A DNA stretch of 64,000 bases, from assembly GCA_963674705.1 (NCBI GenBank), contig OY771506.1:256001-320000 (forward strand), given 5' to 3'. This stretch comes from Phycisphaeraceae bacterium (GTDB lineage Bacteria; Planctomycetota; Phycisphaerae; Phycisphaerales; Phycisphaeraceae). The position numbers were made by a program, and so were the translations under genes. Shown here piece by piece: positions 3,872 to 40,765 of this stretch. Numbering within the stretch: the first letter of the stretch is position 1; the number at the start of each line of letters is the position of its first letter. Under the pieces are notes generated by a model. The model was not told the origin of the DNA. It made no database searches and saw only the letters and a list, made by a program, of their open reading frames with translations.

Positions 3872-4645
3872 ATGCAAAAAACAATGAACATCACTGCAGC
3901 CATCACCGCAATGGCTGTTGTGGTTTGTCTGTCTCAAGTTTCCGTGGCAGCGCCGTTCGTTAATCCACCAGAATCCAACTGTCCACAATGGGTGACAGCC
4001 TTCCCCTATCAACGGAACATCCTTGTCGGCTTCGATACCGATCCGCACCAATGGCCGGACCACGTCACAAGTCCGACACCCGGCGAACGCAAAGCCCTGA
4101 CGCCCGATCTCGTTCATCATGAAGGTACCGATGATCCAGTGCTGTACCCCTCGGATTGGATAGCCGGGAATGTTGATCCGTCCACGAACGGGTACACCGA
4201 GTGGATGCCCATAGACACAGAAACGGGCTCGAATCGGAAGGGCATCCTGGCGCTGCATGGATCAGCGGGCACAACAATCACACTCGTCTGGCACATCGAC
4301 AACTGGGACCGGCCCTACAAGGAAAAACACTTCTACGCAGAGGTCGAGTTCTACACAACGGGTAACGATGGGATCGATGAACTGATCAGCAGCACCGGAC
4401 AGATCGAGACACTGGACGCCCATTACGAAGTACTGGCGGACGGCTGGGTGCGCTGGTGGAGCTGGGCCACCCTCGTGCCGAATCCCGAGTGGGAGCAAAT
4501 GGTTAATACCATCACCTTCCAGGAAGACGGCTTCCTGCTGATGGATTACATGCACATCGCTACCGAATGTGTTCCCGAACCCGCATCGATCACACTGCTT
4601 GGTCTGATCGGTCTGACAATAACGCGCCGTAACACAATCCGCTGA
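3872..4645 (+). CDS. PEP-CTERM protein
   Basis: Signal peptide; C-terminus VPEPASITLLGLIGLTITRRNTIR. Confidence 0.88.
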   Translation: MQKTMNITAAITAMAVVVCLSQVSVAAPFVNPPESNCPQWVTAFPYQRNILVGFDTDPHQWPDHVTSPTPGERKALTPDLVHHEGTDDPVLYPSDWIAGNVDPSTNGYTEWMPIDTETGSNRKGILALHGSAGTTITLVWHIDNWDRPYKEKHFYAEVEFYTTGNDGIDELISSTGQIETLDAHYEVLADGWVRWWSWATLVPNPEWEQMVNTITFQEDGFLLMDYMHIATECVPEPASITLLGLIGLTITRRNTIR

Positions 4646-4697
4646 TCGTATGTACTGTCAGCCCCTCGTCCGCTCGCGCCACACGCGCGACCCCCCC

Positions 4698-4730
4698 GAA
4701 GCCCACGTTCAAAGAACGTGGGTTTCTTTC
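4698..4730. terminator. Probable intrinsic terminator
   Basis: Stem GAAGCCCACGTTC-aaa-GAACGTGGGTTTC followed by T-rich tract, between convergent genes. Confidence 0.6.
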
Positions 4731-4755
4731 TGATTTGTGTTGATCATTCAACTGT

Positions 4756-5050
4756 TCACGACACCGGCCTGATCGGCAACCCCGCATCGATCAGATACTG
4801 CTTAGTCACACCGATCGGATACTCGCCGTAGTGAAAGATGCTCGCCGCCAGCGCCGCATCCGCGCGCGTCTGTTCAAACACCTGTTTCATGTGCTCGGGG
4901 CTGCCACAACCCCCCGACGCCACCGCCGGCACATCCACCGCATCCGCGATCGCTTTAGTGATCTCGATGTCGTAACCATCCTTCGTCCCGTCCGCATCCA
5001 TGCTCTTTATATACCCGCGCGATCTCCACCGGATCGCCCGCGTCCCGTAA
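4756..5050 (-). pseudogene. hisF: Degraded hisF copy (5' end lost, internal deletion)
   Basis: About 4780-5005 matches hisF 7730-7954 with 7 mismatches by manual count; 5006-5050 encodes [14 protein letters not shown], matching the hisF N-terminal region, fused out of frame. Confidence 0.85.
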
Positions 5051-5065
5051 CGCAGTTAACAGTAA

Positions 5066-6115
5066 CTACCGTGCCTCTCTGGATCTGAGTTTATTACTCA
5101 GCTTGGTCTTGAGCGGCTCGACGTCATCCAGACGGATAGGCAACACGTCAAAGTACAGCGAGCCGGTCAGCGGCAGCACCGTCTCGTCACCACGCGCCAT
5201 CCGCGCCAGGATGCGCACGGACTGATACCCGAACTGGTAGGGGTCCTGCACGAGTGTTGCGTAGACTTCGCCATCGAGGATGCCCTGCAACGTGTCTTCA
5301 TGCTCATCGAACGCCACGAGTTGAACCTGCCCGGCCTTGCCCGCCTCCTTCAGAGCCGATAAACACAACGGCGAGTTGTACCCGAACATGCCAACCATGC
5401 ATCCTAGGTCGGGGTGTTCCACCAATGCCTTGGCCGCGTTCTCCCGGGCCCTGTCCATGTTGTGGTCATCAACCATCGTCCCCAGGATCGTATATCCACC
5501 ACCAGCCAAAGGCTGGTCGGGGACATCGAAGCCCTGTGGATTTTTAGGCCTGCCCAACAACTCATCGATAAAACCCTGTCGGCGGAGTCGCGCGTTGTCC
5601 TGATCGACACTGCCGATGAAAATCATCAGTGAGCCTCCATCAGGCATCGCTTCCTTGACCAGTTGAGCGCACTTCTGACCCGCCTTGTAATTATCGGTGC
5701 CGATGTAACACAAACGCTCACTGTAAGGTGCGTCAGAGTCGTGTGTGACCAGGTATGTTTTCTCGGCGATCCGTTTCAACAAGACCGACTGCCTGCTGGG
5801 ATCGATCGGACTAATCGCCACACCATCCACATCGTCCTGTTCAAGTAACTCACGGATGAATTTGTTCTGATCATCCAAGCCTTCTTTCGGCATGATGACA
5901 CGGACATTGGCATTCAAGCGTTTAGCCGAATCCTCCGCACCCGCCGCAGCGATTTCCGAGAAGGCGTCCGACGCGTTGGTGATAAACACGATATCCACCG
6001 GCATCTCGGAACCCTGGCTTTCCTGAAACCGCCCCACCCAAACCCATGCGGCGACTGCCGCTACCACAATTAATACGATCGTCCAGAGAACCTTGCGAGT
6101 ACCCGACTCTGCCAT
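5066..6115 (-). CDS. Sugar ABC-type substrate-binding protein (RbsB/Peripla_BP_4-like), orphan
   Basis: N-terminal anchor; motifs DGVAISP, DSDAP..RLCYIGTDNY, VQDPYQFGY. Confidence 0.85.
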   Translation of the reverse strand: MAESGTRKVLWTIVLIVVAAVAAWVWVGRFQESQGSEMPVDIVFITNASDAFSEIAAAGAEDSAKRLNANVRVIMPKEGLDDQNKFIRELLEQDDVDGVAISPIDPSRQSVLLKRIAEKTYLVTHDSDAPYSERLCYIGTDNYKAGQKCAQLVKEAMPDGGSLMIFIGSVDQDNARLRRQGFIDELLGRPKNPQGFDVPDQPLAGGGYTILGTMVDDHNMDRARENAAKALVEHPDLGCMVGMFGYNSPLCLSALKEAGKAGQVQLVAFDEHEDTLQGILDGEVYATLVQDPYQFGYQSVRILARMARGDETVLPLTGSLYFDVLPIRLDDVEPLKTKLSNKLRSREAR

Positions 6116-34091: not shown

Positions 34092-35102
34092 ATGTCCCAA
34101 CCTGCCAAAACCTGCATCATCGGCGACGGCGCTATGGCGACCGTCCTGGCCCTTCTATTAGAGAGTAAGGGCATGGATGTCACGCTCTGGGGCGTGTTCC
34201 CGGACCATCTGGCCGAACTCATCCAGACACGCGAGAACCGCCGGTACCTGCCCGGCTACCGCCTGCCGGACCGGATCCACGTCACGCCCAGCGAGCAACG
34301 GGCCCTTGGCGGGGCCGAATTGATCGTCAACGCCGTACCGACCCAGTTCATCCGCAGCGTCTGGCAGCGGATCGCCCCGCACGTCGCGGCCGGCACCCCG
34401 ATCGCCAGCATCGCCAAGGGCGTTGAGACTGATACGACGCTCAGGCCCACGCAGATCATCGCGGATGTCCTGGAATCTCCGGGCCCGCTCGCCGCCATCT
34501 CCGGCCCGAGCGTCGCCGATGAACTGGCACGCTGCCTGCCCGCGACCGTCTGTGCCGCCAGCGAGCACGCCGCGTTCGCCGAGAAGCTGCAGCAGACGTT
34601 CACCACGCACTGGTTCCGCGTCTATACGAATAACGACTTGCTTGGCACGGAGTTAGCCGGCGCGACCAAGAACGTCATCGCGCTGGCCGCCGGTATCCTC
34701 GACGGCCTGCAGGCCGGCAACAACGCCAAAAGCGCCTTGCTGTCGCGCGGCCTGGCGGAGATCACCCGGCTCGGTACCGCAATGGGCGCGAGCGCCGAAA
34801 CGTTCTTCGGCGTGGCCGGCGTCGGCGACCTGGCGACCACCTGCTTCAGCCCGACCGGCCGCAACCGAACCTGTGGCGAGCAGTTAGGTAGAGGCCGCAA
34901 ACTCGACACCGTCCTCAACGAGATGCCCGGCGTCGTGGAAGGCGTCCCGACCACCAAGGCCGTGGTCGAACTGGCGAAAAAATTCAACGTCGAGATGCCG
35001 ATCACCCAGACGGTGCACAAGGTCCTCTTCGAAGGACTCGACCCGCTGGAAGGTATCAGCCAACTGATGAACCGCGAACCGAAACCGGAAACGATCGGCT
35101 AA
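34092..35102 (+). CDS. gpsA: NAD(P)H-dependent glycerol-3-phosphate dehydrogenase
   Basis: GDGAMAT, AKG, SGPS, ELAGATKNVIA, GVGDLATTC, RNR, VEGVPT. Confidence 0.95.
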   Translation: MSQPAKTCIIGDGAMATVLALLLESKGMDVTLWGVFPDHLAELIQTRENRRYLPGYRLPDRIHVTPSEQRALGGAELIVNAVPTQFIRSVWQRIAPHVAAGTPIASIAKGVETDTTLRPTQIIADVLESPGPLAAISGPSVADELARCLPATVCAASEHAAFAEKLQQTFTTHWFRVYTNNDLLGTELAGATKNVIALAAGILDGLQAGNNAKSALLSRGLAEITRLGTAMGASAETFFGVAGVGDLATTCFSPTGRNRTCGEQLGRGRKLDTVLNEMPGVVEGVPTTKAVVELAKKFNVEMPITQTVHKVLFEGLDPLEGISQLMNREPKPETIG

Positions 35103-35322: not shown

Positions 35323-35407
35323 GGGAGACCCGCGCCGAGCGCGGCAGGATTTTGTATAGCCGCGGCCAGTGGCCGCGCGGATTTGTGGTTGTTGATGCGA
35401 AGAGCGC
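35323..35407 (+). repeat. Left copy of diverged direct repeat (about 85 bp) bounding the RAYT island
   Basis: Aligns with 40517-40601 (GGGAGA..GCCGAGCGCGGC..TTTGTGGTTGTTGATG.GAAGAGCGC). Confidence 0.7.
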
Positions 35408-35431
35408 CAAAGAAACGGGTTCAGACCCCGT

Positions 35432-36136
35432 TTATGGGGAAGCCTTCGGTCGCCCCGGTCTGCGGACGGTGGATTCGAGGCCGAAGGTTTGGATGGTGCA
35501 GTTTCGCCATTGGTCATTGCCGAATGGTGAACAGCGGTTGGCGCTGGTGCGCAGCGCGTTCAGTTCGTCTTCGCTGAGCGGCGTGTTGACGGTCCGTAGC
35601 CAGTTGCGGGGTCGGCCGCGTTGGGGCGATGTCAAACCACGGATAGGCCAATCGCTGAGTAGTTGCTGTTGATCAGTATCGCCAGACTTCCAACGCCATA
35701 ATCCTGACCATCTCCACGCTGCCGCCGACTCCACCAATCCCGCACGCATCGCGTTGCGTTCGACGTATCGGCAGACGGTCAGCAGATGTTCGTTGCTCTG
35801 GATCAGAAAGGATTTGAATCGCCCCTGGTACAACGCCCCGTCTCCCACGCTCTTATGTGCAACCCGGTAACGCCCGGCGTGGGTCGTGGTCAACCACTGC
35901 ATGAACGGGCCAAGCGCGCCGTCGGCCTCTGTCTTGAGGACCAGGTGCCAGTGGTTACCCATCATGCAGTAGGTCAGCAGCCGGACATCGCCGCCGCTGC
36001 GTTCGACCGCTTCGGCCAGGACCTTTTCGAACGCTTCGAAGTCGCCATCCTTGCGGAACATCCGCCACCGACCGGCCGTACGGTTCAGGACGTGGTAAGC
36101 ATAGCCGCCGACATCAACGCGTGGAGATCTTGGCAT
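35432..36136 (-). mobile_element. REP-associated tyrosine transposase (RAYT, Y1/HUH family)
   Basis: MPRSPR..YHVLNR, YCMMGNHWHL (HUH), YQGRFKS, RYVERN (catalytic Tyr), WRWS, RRPGRP; REP palindrome on both sides. Confidence 0.92.
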
Positions 36137-36208
36137 GCGGGTAGTTTAGGTCCGATCGCCAAGCCCGCCCAAACGGGGTCTGACCCCGTTTCTTCTCCAA
36201 ATGCCTGA

Positions 36209-37213
36209 TTAATTATTATTGGGAGGGATAATTGATACAAAATATTCGCCATACATTGCTGAATATCCCTGGAGAACCTGACTTAAAACACCCTGTTTGG
36301 TTATATGATTACCATTCTTGTCTATCCACACCCAAGCCGTCCCCAAATCAACTAACGCACGATCATTGACGAATTTTGAGCCATGGTTGTATTTACATGA
36401 AATGTCAATTATACCTCGCTTATTGACATAACCAACTTTACCTTGCATGACTACAGCAGCAAGATCTTCTGAAAAGATATCCGCCTCTTCAAACTGCGGC
36501 TTGATGACTATGTTTGCATCCTTATCAATATAAGCCCACTTTCTTTCATCATTATCAACCAGAACTGGCGCGTACCCATCAGAAAATCCTTTTGCATCAT
36601 AATATTTTGGCTCGATCACGAGCTGAAAATGTTCATCTACGAAGCCCCATAAGTTAGAATCCTGCATTTTTACGGCTCGTAGTCCTTCACGCAAAACTCC
36701 ACTGTCTAGATACTTTACCACTAAATCACCATCGTGATTAAAAAACATCGCGCCTGATGGATTTTTAATACGTCCATAGCCACCATAATAATCATCAACG
36801 ATACCTTTATACATAGGTTTAACTATATACTGCCCATCACGGTCAATGTAAGCACACAATATACCGTCTTCAGATTTCACATATACCGCAGCTATACCTT
36901 CGTGAAATAAACGCACATCATAGAATGTGTTACTACCCACAAATTCACCGGATTCGTTAATTAAATGCCATTTATCTCCAAGCAAAACAAAACCGCGACC
37001 TTGGCTAAAATCAAGCACTTCATCGTACTTAGCAGGTACGACAACGTTTCCATTCTGATCCTTGAAGCCTCCACGTGTATCAGCTGTATAAAAGACCTTC
37101 CATTGATCTGACGGCCATGTTCTGGTATCAGAATACGAGATATCACCACCGTACGATAACTGGACACTAGCAATTAAACACACTGCTATTAATAAATAGT
37201 AAATTTTTATCAT
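36209..37213 (-). CDS. Secreted WG-repeat protein, AT-rich
   Basis: Signal peptide; repeats such as WGFVD..VIEPKY..AKGFSDG, FSEDLAAV..KVGYVN; much more AT-rich than flanks. Confidence 0.85.
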   Translation of the reverse strand: MIKIYYLLIAVCLIASVQLSYGGDISYSDTRTWPSDQWKVFYTADTRGGFKDQNGNVVVPAKYDEVLDFSQGRGFVLLGDKWHLINESGEFVGSNTFYDVRLFHEGIAAVYVKSEDGILCAYIDRDGQYIVKPMYKGIVDDYYGGYGRIKNPSGAMFFNHDGDLVVKYLDSGVLREGLRAVKMQDSNLWGFVDEHFQLVIEPKYYDAKGFSDGYAPVLVDNDERKWAYIDKDANIVIKPQFEEADIFSEDLAAVVMQGKVGYVNKRGIIDISCKYNHGSKFVNDRALVDLGTAWVWIDKNGNHITKQGVLSQVLQGYSAMYGEYFVSIIPPNNN

Positions 37214-37252
37214 AACTATACTATCGGTAATGTGAACACTATAAATTTATGA

Positions 37253-37507
37253 TTATTTCGCTTTACGATTGTAGACCTGAAAAGCTACTGAATCATTATC
37301 TGAATCACCCCATACCCTCGCAGTAACATAATAACAACACCCATCGCCAGGATATGTAAAGCGACCTGTACCTGATATGTACATTTTACCAGAACCTTTG
37401 TGCCATTCCGCATGTCCCGTATCCCAATGTTCAGAACATACGACGGAAGGATCATAAGATGTTTTAGTCATATTACTTATATCTAAACTAACCTGGGATA
37501 CACCTCC
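37253..37507 (-). pseudogene. 5'-truncated C-terminal gene fragment (possible polymorphic toxin tip)
   Basis: AT-rich frame stays open right up to the REP flank at 37508; no convincing RBS; directly precedes the WG-repeat gene. Confidence 0.5.
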
Positions 37508-37535
37508 GAGGAAGAAACGGGGTCTGACCCTGTTT

Positions 37536-37734
37536 TTCCGAGCACCAGCCGGTGATCCAGATATTCTAAAGGATTATCCTTGAAACGCGCGACGGCCCAT
37601 GCGATACTGGTCATCCGTGACCTCCTGTGATGTTGTTGTTAGAACACCACCATCATCGCAGGAGGTTCATTATTGCGCCAGTGCAACGTAACGCGCGCTA
37701 TCAAAATAACTTACGGCTTAAGTTTGCGGCGTTC
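37536..37734 (-). mobile_element. Left end of an IS (IS4-like) with the first ~25 transposase codons
   Basis: Minus strand: terminus GAACGCCGCAAACTTAAG, hairpin covering AGGAGG, then MTSIAWAVARFKDNPLEYLDHRLVL cut by a REP; family call from recalled resemblance. Confidence 0.5.
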
Positions 37735-37757
37735 GGGTCTGACCCCGTTTCTTCCTC

Positions 37758-37877
37758 GGCCGTACGGTTCAGGACGTGGTAAGCATAGCCGCCGACATCA
37801 ATGCGGGGAGGTCTTGGCATGCGGGTAGTTTAGAGCCGGTCGCCAAGCCCGTCAAAACGGGGTCTGACCCCGTTTCT
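37758..37877 (-). pseudogene. Truncated second RAYT copy (leader plus first 21 codons)
   Basis: Near-identical to 36074-36193; encodes MPRPPRIDVGGYAYHVLNRTA. Confidence 0.88.
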
Positions 37878-37928
37878 CGTTCGTCAAAACGGGGTCTGAC
37901 CCCGTTTCTCGTTTGACCCCGTTTCTCG

Positions 37929-38075
37929 TTGAAAGAACATACAAGTATTGCAGTAGAGGCATTGGTTAGTGGAGGTGCTAGTCGTCAAGAAGCACGAGAA
38001 CTTGTTACTGAATCATTAATTAATCTTCGAAAGCAAGGTGTTACACAACCAACGAGTATTCCTTGGAATCCGTAA
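37929..38075 (+). pseudogene. Orphan C-terminal fragment, probable polymorphic toxin tip
   Basis: 48-codon frame KEHTSIAVEALVSGGASRQEARELVTESLINLRKQGVTQPTSIPWNP* begins at the REP edge; AT-rich; below ORF-track cutoff. Confidence 0.55.
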
Positions 38076-38101
38076 GAAGATCTACTTAAAGGAAATGCGA
38101 G

Positions 38102-38458
38102 ATGTCGCAAAATGCTTTAGATAAATTTGGGCAAATACTAATGCTCAAGGTTAGAGATGAAACCATCACAGACTGGGGGATGATCGTCTCAGGTAAGATG
38201 CTTGGTGAACATGCAGAGCGTATGCGCAAAATCTTTCAGAAGTTAAGTTCAGAGGAACTGCAGATAATTGATAAACTTGTTCCTGAAGTCGTAGACACGG
38301 TACTACATCATCTATTATGGACAATTGAACAGCAAGACGATCTTATCTTAAGTATCCGTGACCATAAATCAGTAATTGATTTGAAAAGAGTTTCTGATGG
38401 CTTGCCAGGAGAGTTGTATACTAATGAGGGATGGATAGCGAGATTCAGCAAACAATAA
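38102..38458 (+). CDS. Small AT-rich protein, probable immunity protein
   Basis: RBS AAGGA; 118 aa ending SDGLPGELYTNEGWIARFSK; 26 bp after the putative toxin tip. Confidence 0.65.
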   Translation: MSQNALDKFGQILMLKVRDETITDWGMIVSGKMLGEHAERMRKIFQKLSSEELQIIDKLVPEVVDTVLHHLLWTIEQQDDLILSIRDHKSVIDLKRVSDGLPGELYTNEGWIARFSKQ

Positions 38459-38473
38459 TGGGAAGAGGCGGAT

Positions 38474-38748
38474 TCAATTCCGAAGCGCAACACCGGGTAA
38501 GGCGTTAAGGACCTCGATCGGGGTGCGGTAGTCGAGGCACTTTCTTGGACGATTGTTAAGCATCTGCTGGACGCGTGCAAGCCGGGCGTTGCTTACGTGG
38601 CGGAAGTCGCTGCCTTTGGGGAAGAACTCGCAGAGCAGGACGTTGGTGTTTTCGTTGGCGCCGCGCTGCCAGGTCGCGTGGGGATTGGCGAAGTAGACCT
38701 TCATCTGCAGTGTGCGCTCGATCGAGGCGAAGTCGGCGAACTCCTTGC
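38474..38748 (-). pseudogene. IS30-family transposase C-terminal fragment
   Basis: KEFA..VYFANPHATWQRGANENTN..FFPKG..LNNRPRKCLDYRTP..VALRN. Confidence 0.9.
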
Positions 38749-39001
38749 GAAAGTAGAATGTTCCCTTTTCCCTGTTTGCGTATGAGCGATAGGCGAGTTG
38801 TGGAAGGTGTGTGGTGTTTGTCCCGGGTTGTTCACTTAAAGCGCAGAACATGGCGTGACTGGTGGTCGCGGCTATACATGTTGCATACGAGCTGGATGCG
38901 CCCGCCTTACTTTTTTTAGTTTTTTTCGCGAACTTTGCCCACCCGGGCTCGTAGCATTGAAGATAGGGGGAGTTAAAAAAAGTAAATAAGGACATAAGCA
39001 T

Positions 39002-40228
39002 ATGACAAGCATATTACAGAATAACATGACAACGCCTCCTGCATCTGACAGCGAGCCGATGCTGGATTTGCCTATGGAACTTCAGCAGATGCTTTTGCAG
39101 GCGGTGGAACAGGATGCGAGCGATATTCACCTGGACAGCGGCTCGTCGAGGCCTGCGCTTCGTTTCCGGGTAGACAGCACTTTGTATGTCCAGCGTCGAT
39201 TGGAAAGTAAAGAAAGCGCGTTGCGTTTGATCAACCAGGTGCGGGTGTCGGCGGGCATGCATATTGATGCGATCTGGACGCCGGAGCAGGGGCAGTTCCG
39301 TTGGCGATGGAAAGACAAAGTGGTGGACATCCGGGTTACCGTTGCGCCGACGGTGCCGGACAACCTGGCGCTACACATGCGACTGCTTCGGCCGCCGCAT
39401 CAGTTGCACGGGCTGGATGAACTGGGCTTATCCGAAAGCAACCTGCAAACCGTACGTAACACTTTAAAACGGTCGGATGGTTTGATCCTGATCTCCGGGC
39501 CGACCGGCGGGGGCAAGACAACCACGCTTTACGCGATGCTCGATAGCGGCATGTTTGATGACAAGTTGATCGCAACGGTGGAAGACCCGGTCGAGTATGA
39601 ATTACCTGACGCCAGGCAGCTTGAGGTGGACCCGAAACATGAATTGACGATGGCGGAAGGCCTGCGGACGTTGTTGCGGATGGACCCGGATGTCCTGGCG
39701 GTCGGCGAGATACGCGATAGTGCGTCCGCGTCGACGACAGCGATGGCGGCGCTGGCGGGTCGGCTTGTGTTGGCGACGATCCACGCGCAGGATGCGGCGA
39801 GCACGATCACCGCTTTTCACCGCATGGGTGTGCCGTACTACGTCATCGGACACACGTTACGGCTTGTGATCAATCAACGCATGATGCGCAAGCTATGCAG
39901 GCATTGCGCCAACAGCAGGACACTCGAGAAACATGAAGAAGAGCTGTTTAAATCGTACGGCATTGAGGTTCCCCAAACCCTGTACGACCCGAACGGTTGT
40001 TCGCAGTGTCACGAGCGCGGATTCCACGGGCTCGTAGGTATCTTTGAAACGCTGGCGACCAACAATCAGTTCGGCTACTGGCTGTCGGAGGGTCGAACCC
40101 CTCCGGCGATCCAGCAGCGTATCGGCGAACAAGGCTGTCAACCGCTGATCGCCTGCGCGCTTGAAAAAGCAGCGAAGGGCCAGACCTCGATGTCGGAGGT
40201 CCACGCCCTGATGAATCAATATGATTGA
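39002..40228 (+). CDS. GspE/PilB-family secretion/pilus ATPase (short, lacking the long N-terminal domain)
   Basis: ASDIH, Walker A GPTGGGKT, TVEDPVE, LRMDPDV..GEIRD, tetra-Cys motif; second His-box position reads GRLV. Confidence 0.9.
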   Translation: MTSILQNNMTTPPASDSEPMLDLPMELQQMLLQAVEQDASDIHLDSGSSRPALRFRVDSTLYVQRRLESKESALRLINQVRVSAGMHIDAIWTPEQGQFRWRWKDKVVDIRVTVAPTVPDNLALHMRLLRPPHQLHGLDELGLSESNLQTVRNTLKRSDGLILISGPTGGGKTTTLYAMLDSGMFDDKLIATVEDPVEYELPDARQLEVDPKHELTMAEGLRTLLRMDPDVLAVGEIRDSASASTTAMAALAGRLVLATIHAQDAASTITAFHRMGVPYYVIGHTLRLVINQRMMRKLCRHCANSRTLEKHEEELFKSYGIEVPQTLYDPNGCSQCHERGFHGLVGIFETLATNNQFGYWLSEGRTPPAIQQRIGEQGCQPLIACALEKAAKGQTSMSEVHALMNQYD

Positions 40229-40248
40229 TGCCTGAAGATGTATCAGCG

Positions 40249-40325
40249 AAAAGGGGCGGGAGTCGTTTCTATGAAGCGGGTGGTCAGTTTCCGCTTTAAA
40301 CATAACGACTCCCGGCCCTCTTTTT
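40249..40325. repeat. Inverted repeat (REP-like or terminator)
   Basis: AAAAGGGGCGGGAGTCGTT ... AACGACTCCCGGCCCTCTTTTT. Confidence 0.65.
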
Positions 40326-40433
40326 TATTGAAGGGATTGAGGCTTTGTTGAGTTTAAAAACGCGGACAGATCAATCCGCATGCCGGGTGCGGATGAGTGT
40401 GAATCCGCCGATTGTCAGCAGGATAAGTGATGC

Positions 40434-40483
40434 GAGGAAGAAACGGAGGAAGAAACGGAGAGGAAGAAACGGAGGAAGAAACG
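40434..40483 (+). repeat. Tandem GAGGAAGAAACG x4 leading into a REP
   Basis: Read directly; the unit is the outer flank plus arm of the REP. Confidence 0.85.
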
Positions 40484-40516
40484 GGGTCTGACCCTGTTTT
40501 TCAGGTGGCTTGCTTA

Positions 40517-40623
40517 GGGAGAGCCGTGCCGAGCGCGGCGAGGTTTTATGCCGTCGCGGCTGGTGGCTGTGCGGGTTTGTGGTTGTTGATGTGAAGAGCG
40601 CGACCGATGGTCGCGGCTATACA
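40517..40623 (+). repeat. Right copy of island-bounding direct repeat plus CGCGACC-type REP arm
   Basis: Aligns with 35323-35407; continues CGCGACCGATGGTCGCGGCTATACA. Confidence 0.7.
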
Positions 40624-40765
40624 GGTGGGTGTGAGTTCATTGTAAATGATAAAAACCCGGCCGGGATGGTCGGGCATTAGACGTGAAGCAAGAGCGCTAA
40701 GCCGTAAGCGGCTTGACGAGTTGGTCGTGTTTGCTTTGTGATTCGTTACGTAATCAACCCGGCTC

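Follow-up and report, generated by a model that had tools for sequence, protein, structure and literature searches.

The 64,000-nt stretch analyzed here, hereafter the window, comprises positions 256,001 to 320,000 of contig OY771506.1 from a Phycisphaeraceae bacterium (assembly GCA_963674705.1) and carries a gene for a Y1-type HUH transposase next to an array of short palindromes, between which pieces of various genes are found. Judging from the junctions in these sequences, we propose with moderate confidence that one-ended joining by the HUH enzyme, a TIRYT by the features tested, swaps or captures DNA at resident palindromes without selecting it. Capture at resident repeats is likely, selective collection of immunity genes is possible but unproven, and the locus resembles a hotspot of unselective exchange more than a system made for gathering immunity genes. 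Coordinates refer to the window unless stated otherwise. The genome holding it (G000; 5.54 Mb, single contig) was compared with a complete genome of the same genus (G004), and fetched loci homologous to the transposase locus carry L numbers.

The repeat unit is a 21-nt palindrome, here called the terminal inverted repeat (TIR), which folds into a 9-bp hairpin. Six full sites with at most 3 mismatches start at positions 35413, 36171, 37515, 37855, 37887 and 40479, compared with 0 matches to the 21-mer in 100 shuffles. An earlier note on this DNA had described about eight copies; the array is real, and this figure is reached when two partial copies (37735–37749 and 37914–37930) are added. Throughout G000, the repeat of the window occurs at 28 sites, 7 of them in the array locus, which is the biggest cluster in this genome when all related repeat families are counted (8/56 sites). 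As the earlier note had stated, base composition switches along the array, with a GC content of 0.61 in the transposase gene and 0.39 in the WG-repeat and toxin/immunity segments.

DNA is joined to these repeats at a nearly fixed distance. Offsets are given as +n nucleotides outward from the palindrome end, taken as CCCCG in the G000/G004 set and as the C-run family-wide. Tandem duplications beside TIRs have varying start points and a single end point: among the 108 TIR sides of G000 and of the G004 loci fetched, 20 have such a duplication, with a junction range that overlaps +8 to +10 in 16 cases (two of the 16 being one event viewed from both strands), whereas only 7 of the 48 duplications found at 6000 random positions do so. 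A nearly fixed offset from the repeat, for which the earlier note had proposed a check, is supported by this comparison. Across the family, 235 TIR copies show 51 outward and 12 inward duplications; positions +7 to +12 account for 60% of the outward junction weight, and 36/51 outward duplications have a microhomology of 0–1 nt. A plasmid record of Rhodospirillum rubrum (R. rubrum) shows the same signature at +8. Within the array itself, two full TIRs and one partial copy (37855–37930, plus strand) are the product of 32-nt and 17-nt tandem duplications, both of which stop at +9 without microhomology, and the TIR at 40437–40499 (minus strand), of which G004 has no copy, carries three tail duplications.

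Joins to defined donors lie at +9 for a transposase piece in the window, at +9 for an anti-sigma piece at 4.51 Mb of G000, and at +8, +8, +10, +10 and +6 for other pieces. Furthermore, orthologous resident TIRs with unrelated outer DNA (six sites) diverge at +3, +6, +6, +7, +9 and +10; these six are the informative rows of a set of 19, in which three others were matched via a paralogue or an insertion sequence (IS) and the rest had both flanks shared or repeated a site. Three other ideas about the junctions were set aside. The signal for a strict YG cut motif is weak: it is compatible with the starts in 14/16 local duplications, but the TIR arm itself supplies the dinucleotides; family-wide, exact joins mostly start with CC (8/12). 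A staggered-break model, in which cargo would come to lie between directly repeated copies of the TIR, was rejected, as it predicts identical inner tails, whereas the flanking copies share inverted ones. Ku-type end joining is not an obvious agent, because G000 (96.6% complete) holds no Ku match.

The second line of evidence comes from relatives. At the orthologous locus of G004, gpsA (glycerol-3-phosphate dehydrogenase; 34092–35102, plus strand; Pfam PF07479/PF01210; 96% identity), the transposase gene (94%) and the TIR upstream of it are conserved, followed by 6.8 kb of unrelated cargo and then by the same T2SSE and anti-sigma genes. The TIR at the 3' end of the transposase gene (35413–35433) is present in G004 as well, and the resident upstream TIR (36171–36197, plus strand) has a 9-nt tail, 7 nt of which are common with G004. 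Beyond this TIR, other cargo is found both in G004 and in a second G000 copy of the locus. The G004 cargo comprises an Rhs-core fragment starting ~10 nt past another TIR, an immunity-sized gene, an IS30 element and a long gene with what we take to be a PEP-CTERM-like end. Identical content in relatives, named in the earlier note as a refuting outcome, was thus not what we found. In the stretches fetched beside gpsA from G001, G003, G008 and G009, neither the transposase nor the TIR was detected.

The second G000 copy, at 4.51 Mb, is frameshifted and carries other cargo, namely a gene for a pentapeptide-repeat protein and ~470 bp from another allele of the anti-sigma 3' region, the latter joined at +9 to a TIR that is also resident there in G004. 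The 40437–40499 TIR of the window, together with the adjacent 3' end of the anti-sigma gene, is found again between TIRs at this position. The frameshift of the second transposase copy results from an 8-bp duplication (CGGCCGTA; G000 4511551–4511566), located where the 5' transposase piece of the window breaks. Of 32 TIRs in the G004 loci compared with G000, 15 are at most 60 nt away from a breakpoint between the two genomes, against 2/17 control repeats and 533/4600 intergenic points; of the others, 12 lie in unaligned DNA and 5 in collinear DNA. This count covers 23 of 29 G004 loci (6 without a G000 orthologue left out), and it is weakened by the choice of loci around TIRs and by the fact that two genomes amount to one comparison.

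Several side observations concern such exchanges elsewhere. A 920-bp low-GC segment starting from a TIR is 100% identical between L038 of G004 (4298–5217) and G000 (3501173–3502092), with flanks at 95–96%, a sequence match which shows what is apparently a recent transfer and indicates that cargo also moves between lineages. At L040 4475–4864 (G004), a TIR cluster lies within a 954-aa open frame, and the G000 DNA differs at the same place. In L039 and L049 (G004), transposase remnants directly follow the gene after full-length Rhs genes, and the clusters continue with genes labelled by eye as secretin-like and ATPase genes.

Several cargo pieces in the window could be identified. Between two TIRs whose tails face inward lie an intact gene for a 334-aa WG-repeat protein (36209–37213, minus strand; PF14903), the WG-repeat gene of the earlier note, and an 83-aa open frame (37256–37504, in the piece 37253–37508, minus strand) that runs into the TIR tail. 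No close copy of the WG-repeat gene was found in five same-genus genomes (best identity 35%). The 83-aa frame has no Pfam or NCBIfam match, and none of 17 candidates was a full-length parent; a second search gave a best score of 0.85 and a third gave three weak matches to repeat-rich proteins. As no longer homologue was found, we do not call it a toxin. The TIR that borders it (37509–37538, minus strand) has the left tail AGGAAGAAA, which is the reverse complement of the TTTCTTCCT tail found at 37748 and in G004.

The following piece is the 5' end of a DDE-type IS (37539–37734, minus strand), cut at +6 from the 37515 TIR and 96% identical to G000 3500977–3501192; the element is complete elsewhere. 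The IS end suggested in the earlier note is real; IS4-like is the label given there, and our own scan gave a weak DDE_Tnp_1 match. Judged by eye, all 15 distinct ends of this IS, taken from G000 and from the G004 loci fetched, adjoin a TIR core, which is clear in 9 cases and degenerate in 6, and one insertion compared with its empty site shows an 11-bp core duplication. For these reasons, the half TIR with a 9-nt tail at 37735–37756 (plus strand) is a target duplication of a TIR-targeting IS, and not the independent repeat that had been counted. The same IS (ends GAACGCC...AACTTAA; 37539–37734, G000 3499684–3501172, L045 6031–7519) enters the cores of several TIRYT repeat families and appears to be a parasite of TIRs.

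Next to this half copy, the beginning of a transposase gene, together with its probable promoter and its TIR (37757–37877, minus strand), is joined exactly at +9. Identity is 99% with the allele of G004 but 93% with the intact gene of the window, so that the piece came from another lineage; its earlier description as the 5' end of such a gene was correct. Beyond the TIR cluster, the last 47 residues of an Rhs-type antibacterial toxin tip (37931–38075, plus strand; 76% to P0001, 65% to the terminal part of an Rhs frame of 1368 aa in L215) are followed by an intact gene for a predicted 118-aa immunity protein, DUF6547-like and assigned by neighbourhood (38102–38458, plus strand). In 2 of 4 fetched loci (L214 and L215), a homologue of the 118-aa gene directly follows the same toxin tip, which supports the toxin-tip/immunity cassette and suggests that the protein is of the cognate immunity type. 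The tip breaks between ~+3 and +9, an imprecise position because the tail codons (S-L) resemble the homologues.

The right part of the array has a different history. A 3' remnant of IS30 (38467–38748, minus strand; NF033563, above cut-off) has a complete copy in the G004 cargo, and the gene for a T2SSE/PilB-like ATPase (39002–40228, plus strand; PF00437) is 84% identical to the G004 gene at the same place and is not recent cargo. With these two elements also present in G004 and the 40479 copy missing there, the stretch 37930–40479 does not stand as one captured interval. The broader statement that every interval holds unrelated DNA applies to several identified pieces, but capture of foreign DNA is not confirmed for every interval. 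Similarly, of the four gene breaks placed within about 10 bp of a repeat, intact donors fix those at 37539 (IS piece, 6 nt past the core) and 37757 (transposase piece, +9), and the break at 37931 truncates a known type of Rhs tip, whereas that at 37508 is only inferred, its parent not having been found among the candidates.

A mechanism that would account for these junctions starts from a single-stranded stem with GGGG/CCCC at its base, formed by two inverted TIRs or by one self-palindromic TIR, as the substrate of the TIRYT. The enzyme would nick about 9 nt outside the CCCCG end (~10 nt from CCCC), and this fixed cut end would be joined to an unfixed end of partner DNA, for which homology would be unnecessary. 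A nearby partner end would give rise to short tail duplications; a distant or incoming one would lead to replacement of the DNA past the resident TIR, and because of this replacement relatives would diverge from the tail outward, genes would be cut at the tail and scraps would gather at TIR clusters. The process itself would not select its cargo. Two polarities are equally compatible with the junctions: the 3' end of the repeat strand may attack another enzyme-linked end, or free 3' ends, from nascent or incoming DNA, may attack an enzyme that sits 5' of the hairpin. Cleavage by HUH enzymes produces a 5' phosphotyrosine and a 3' hydroxyl, and E. coli TnpA-REP was able in vitro to ligate the strand it had cut to an oligonucleotide supplied in the reaction (PMC8266576). 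The distal end of a captured piece may be closed at a second TIR, by homologous recombination with the locus of a relative or by illegitimate joining. We infer from the junctions that this enzyme makes them; the strand of the tyrosine link, the origin of the partner ends and any benefit to the host are likewise conjectural. Of the capture and stacking originally ascribed to a RAYT and its REPs, locus turnover and near-fixed joins stand, whereas the role of the enzyme is deduced and arrays are a minority of loci. More tentatively, and with low confidence, TIRYTs, a widespread HUH subclass, might be domesticated enzymes of DNA capture. A tyrosine-linked end at a fixed distance from the resident hairpin would take up incoming DNA and restore the site, and orphan Rhs tips and immunity genes would be banked without integrase or att sites.

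Apart from the reservations attached to individual counts, several points weigh against joining and capture by the enzyme. In an automated donor search, 9/19 joins lay at +6 to +12 and the other 10 at +16 to +44; an exact-match run moved two of these 10 to +8 and added one further join at +10, and we attribute the outlying joins to diverged flanks and nested repeats, an explanation unproven case by case. The dinucleotide preference at the join is weak: YG is found at +9 in 27% of 103 tails compared with ~15% elsewhere, and shows no peak in other taxa. Extra repeat copies occur in 10/52 homologous loci of at least 8 kb, most loci consisting of the gene and two TIRs. Some TIRs are also single in otherwise collinear DNA, as in L197, where the unit replaces ~12 bp, which fits plain insertion. 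The last point leads to an explanation that we regard as rather unlikely, in which the TIR and its two 9-nt tails together make up a non-autonomous element of 33 nt, and this element enters DNA already acquired by other routes. The offsets would then be the element ends, there would be no capture, and the element would be tolerated in dispensable islands and later struck by IS elements and deletions. It is in line with the single-unit insertion in L197, which lacks a target duplication, with the IS family that targets TIR cores and makes extra copies, with the IS30 remnants in the cargo of both G000 and G004, and with the finding that 55/62 low-GC islands have no TIR. However, orthologous TIRs keep a common inner flank and have unrelated outer DNA within 10 nt, so that the TIR predates the cargo. 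At 4.51 Mb, a resident TIR has joined to it, at +9, a piece of the host anti-sigma gene that stems from another allele, and each TIR in the window has unrelated DNA on its two sides. An assembly artefact at the repeats is extremely improbable, even though the genome is probably metagenome-assembled. Contigs derived from the reads of run X1, which may be the source sample of the assembly, cover 36097–37536, 37884–38496 and 38528–40501 with 0 differences, while no contig among the X1 pieces listed bridges 37537–37883; misassembly, a concern raised from the start, is unlikely because these contigs span most junctions without differences. Moreover, the same duplication signature recurs in many assemblies, including the R. 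rubrum plasmid record.

The view taken in the earlier note, that of a domesticated, dedicated integron-like collector that stacks toxin/immunity modules beside the transposase and keeps the immunity genes, seems improbable to us. Parts of the evidence do point in its direction. A toxin-tip/immunity pair is found in the cargo of both G000 and G004 at the locus, and Imm42 adjoins a TIR in L273. Rhs cores, which count for the joining mechanism as well, occur in 12/185 homologous loci (1.86 Mb), all of them ≤1.9 kb from the transposase, against a genome-wide baseline of 1 in G000 and 7 in G004; the baseline hosts differ from those of the 185 loci, and the hidden Markov model is home-made (10 seeds, with one iteration run over these loci, after a 3-seed version had missed the known G000 core and found 4/185 loci). 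In favour of the joining mechanism itself, Rhs fragments begin right past the TIR tail in L031, L254 and L339, as does a WHH nuclease frame in L043. AT-rich flanks are found at 14% of 135 family TIRs compared with 3.8% of distant windows. Low-GC islands with a TIR within 400 nt number 7/62, compared with a mean of 0.8 and a maximum of 7 in 1000 rotations, which corresponds to a roughly ninefold enrichment. Among low-GC open reading frames, 5/35 match toxin/immunity families (SUKH, SUKH-3, SUFU-like, WHH, YD-repeat), two of them below cut-off, in a set pre-selected for low GC (24 of 34 candidates and 11 added by hand).

On the other hand, cargo is oriented either way and contains remnants of IS elements, transposases and host genes. 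Only 1/10 SUKH and 1/2 SUFU genes have a TIR no farther away than 1.5 kb, arrays are a minority of loci, and G001, G003, G008 and G009 lack the transposase at this locus in the fetched stretches. The case for a dedicated collector therefore falls short, because of the mixed cargo, the few SUKH genes and islands with the repeat, and the few loci with extra copies. An enrichment for immunity genes as a dedicated role is not upheld, and the pattern of kept immunity genes and truncated toxins is reduced to one truncated tip beside an intact cognate immunity-type gene. Under indiscriminate joining at resident TIRs, toxin-tip/immunity modules are over-represented, probably for the reason that such DNA is abundant in incoming or hypervariable regions and that an intact immunity gene is harmless or useful.

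The transposase gene is intact (35432–36136, minus strand; 234 aa; PF01797, E 6.6e-12), as originally described, with the catalytic residues H62-x-H64 and Y124 invariant in 26 aligned sequences and 4ER8 as the best PDB match. Its assignment as a classic RAYT with REPs had to be abandoned. By the features tested, the element is a TIRYT/TIRtron and not a GTAG-REP RAYT, because its repeats carry the GGGGWSAS motif (GGGGTCAG on the minus strand of the window repeat), none of the six window copies has a 5' GTAG/GTGG foot, and the NCBIfam equivalog REP_Tyr_transpos (NF047646) is matched with 51.4 bits, under its cut-off of 80. GGGGWSAS is the mark of TIRYT repeats in the TIRtrons of Di Nocera et al. 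2013 (PMC3733652); Quentin et al. 2018 provisionally equate TIRYT with TnpA-Y1 subclass 2.1 and RAYT group 1, and report this subclass in 14.9% of sampled strains (PMC6006769). A C-terminal extension is described as conserved in subgroup 2.1.1 and as helix-turn-helix-like (HTH-like) in 2.1.2 and the listed TIRYTs. The extension of ~80 aa in our enzyme is conserved and has no HTH Pfam match, which would fit subgroup 2.1.1 better than 2.1.2. Across the family, GGGGWSAS is found exactly in 27/116 and with at most one mismatch in 90/116 cases, and inverted repeats flank both sides of the gene in 116 of 144 homologous loci with enough flank, compared with 2/111 shifted controls. Family TIRs are mostly asymmetric, with the CCCC-TTT end directed away from the gene; the self-palindromic repeat of the window is unusual. 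The nearest named relatives of the transposase are Phycisphaeraceae records, plasmid relatives are distant only (14 records, <60%), and G000 holds, besides the 93% frameshifted copy, paralogues at 41–54%.

Further observations concern the surroundings of these repeats. A TTG(A/T)C box 30–42 nt upstream of the start codon adjoins the inner TIR end in 49/115 loci (control 1) and is, from its position, probably a leaderless promoter abutting the enzyme's own site; in the window it lies at 36137–36175, where it is degenerate in the intact copy, and at 37821–37860. A TIR of another TIRYT family, AGTAGAATGT(T)CCCTTTT, borders the IS30 remnant (38752–38770, plus strand), and a third TIR family, which belongs to the paralogue at 1327 kb of G000, is present at 40249–40325 as an inverted doublet forming a long hairpin (z -7.3). 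Such co-clustering of TIRs of different TIRYT paralogues is also seen at G000 2795.8–2798.7 kb and in L045, with one example downstream of a groEL-like gene, and suggests cross-reaction or common target choice. A second abundant repeat family, GGTCGCGGCTATAC, with 50 sites in G000, lies on both sides of the locus (35325–35410 and 40520–40625) and served as a control. The 21-mer itself is scattered in many copies in metagenome-assembled genomes of soil actinobacteria (L072–L150), where its tail (TTTATNCA-like) is better conserved and duplications are few.

Finally, we compared the locus with known systems. The closest are the TIRtrons, in which, as in the window, a Y1 HUH gene lies between inverted GGGGWSAS repeats without a GTAG foot, the genomic repeat family is modest and some TIRs are self-complementary; the accessible text of the TIRtron papers gives no cut site, tail duplications, cargo exchange or Rhs link (PMC3733652, PMC6006769). 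REPtrons of E. coli, Pseudomonas and Stenotrophomonas (RAYT groups 2 and 3) share the catalytic core, hairpin-near cleavage and strand transfer, but they depend on a GTAG foot, cleave at C|T on either side of the hairpin without a constant distance and disperse REPs in many copies (PMC8266576, PMC5581495), whereas the window element has no GTAG, 28 sites and joins at a near-fixed distance. IS200/IS605 elements, which have a short TnpA, near-identical dispersed copies and unlike end hairpins with tetranucleotide guides, are not a match either, given a 234-aa protein, few divergent copies and the same repeat at both ends. One-ended transposition of IS91 likewise involves an HUH enzyme, no target duplication, one defined end and co-mobilised adjacent DNA, but IS91 moves autonomously as a rolling-circle element and ends in oriIS and terIS (PMC13181058). 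In our case, the two ends resemble each other, the gene is for the most part resident and piece sizes range from 10 bp to a few kb.

The rAID-1 and polyimmunity loci resemble the array in their low-GC immunity genes, intergenic repeats, recombinase alongside and variability between strains (10.1101/471110; PMC3482391). However, rAID-1 has a XerD-type recombinase and co-oriented whole genes (10.1101/471110), compared with an HUH nuclease, mixed orientation and mostly truncated pieces in the window. The definition of rAID-1 also includes at least two co-directional downstream genes with a GC content of at most 41%; the window has two segments of 0.39 on opposite strands with one intact gene each. 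Pfam/NCBIfam scans of the locus revealed neither a XerD-like recombinase nor IntI, the recombinase-type genes being the HUH gene and IS remnants, and no Rfam match was obtained. Nor does the cargo look like the co-oriented whole-gene cassettes of an integron, each closed by attC, as it lies on both strands and includes four truncated pieces. Taken together, these features indicate that the element is not a REPtron, an integron or rAID-1. In the TnpA-REP/prochlorosin case, the same subclass was proposed for diversifying recombination, with truncated transposase pieces among variable genes, but neither inverted repeats nor a junction rule were found, and the causal claim was later qualified by the authors (10.1101/2020.03.09.984088).

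Bertels et al. speculated that palindromes act as bait for foreign DNA (PMC5581495), RAYT group 1 has been described as a co-opted single-copy gene (10.1101/2021.07.10.451892), and the accessible text of 10.1101/2024.07.17.603846 contains nothing on a fixed-offset joining mechanism. Our search of literature outside subscription journals found no fixed-offset join, TIR-bounded cargo exchange or Rhs link described for the TIRYT family, and no substrate, cut site or function of subclass 2.1. The genomic junctions predict an exact substrate and cut, a GGGG/CCCC-based stem with a nick ~10 nt outside, which are directly assayable. If true, toxin tips, immunity genes and other small genes could enter fixed chromosomal slots without homology, which would bear on the host role of domesticated RAYT-like genes and on the origin of orphan Rhs modules away from rhs genes; a positional single-strand ligase could also serve as a tool. 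Thus, while the TIRtron/TIRYT class itself is already known, what the junctions appear to add is a concrete, testable joining mechanism for a TIRtron.

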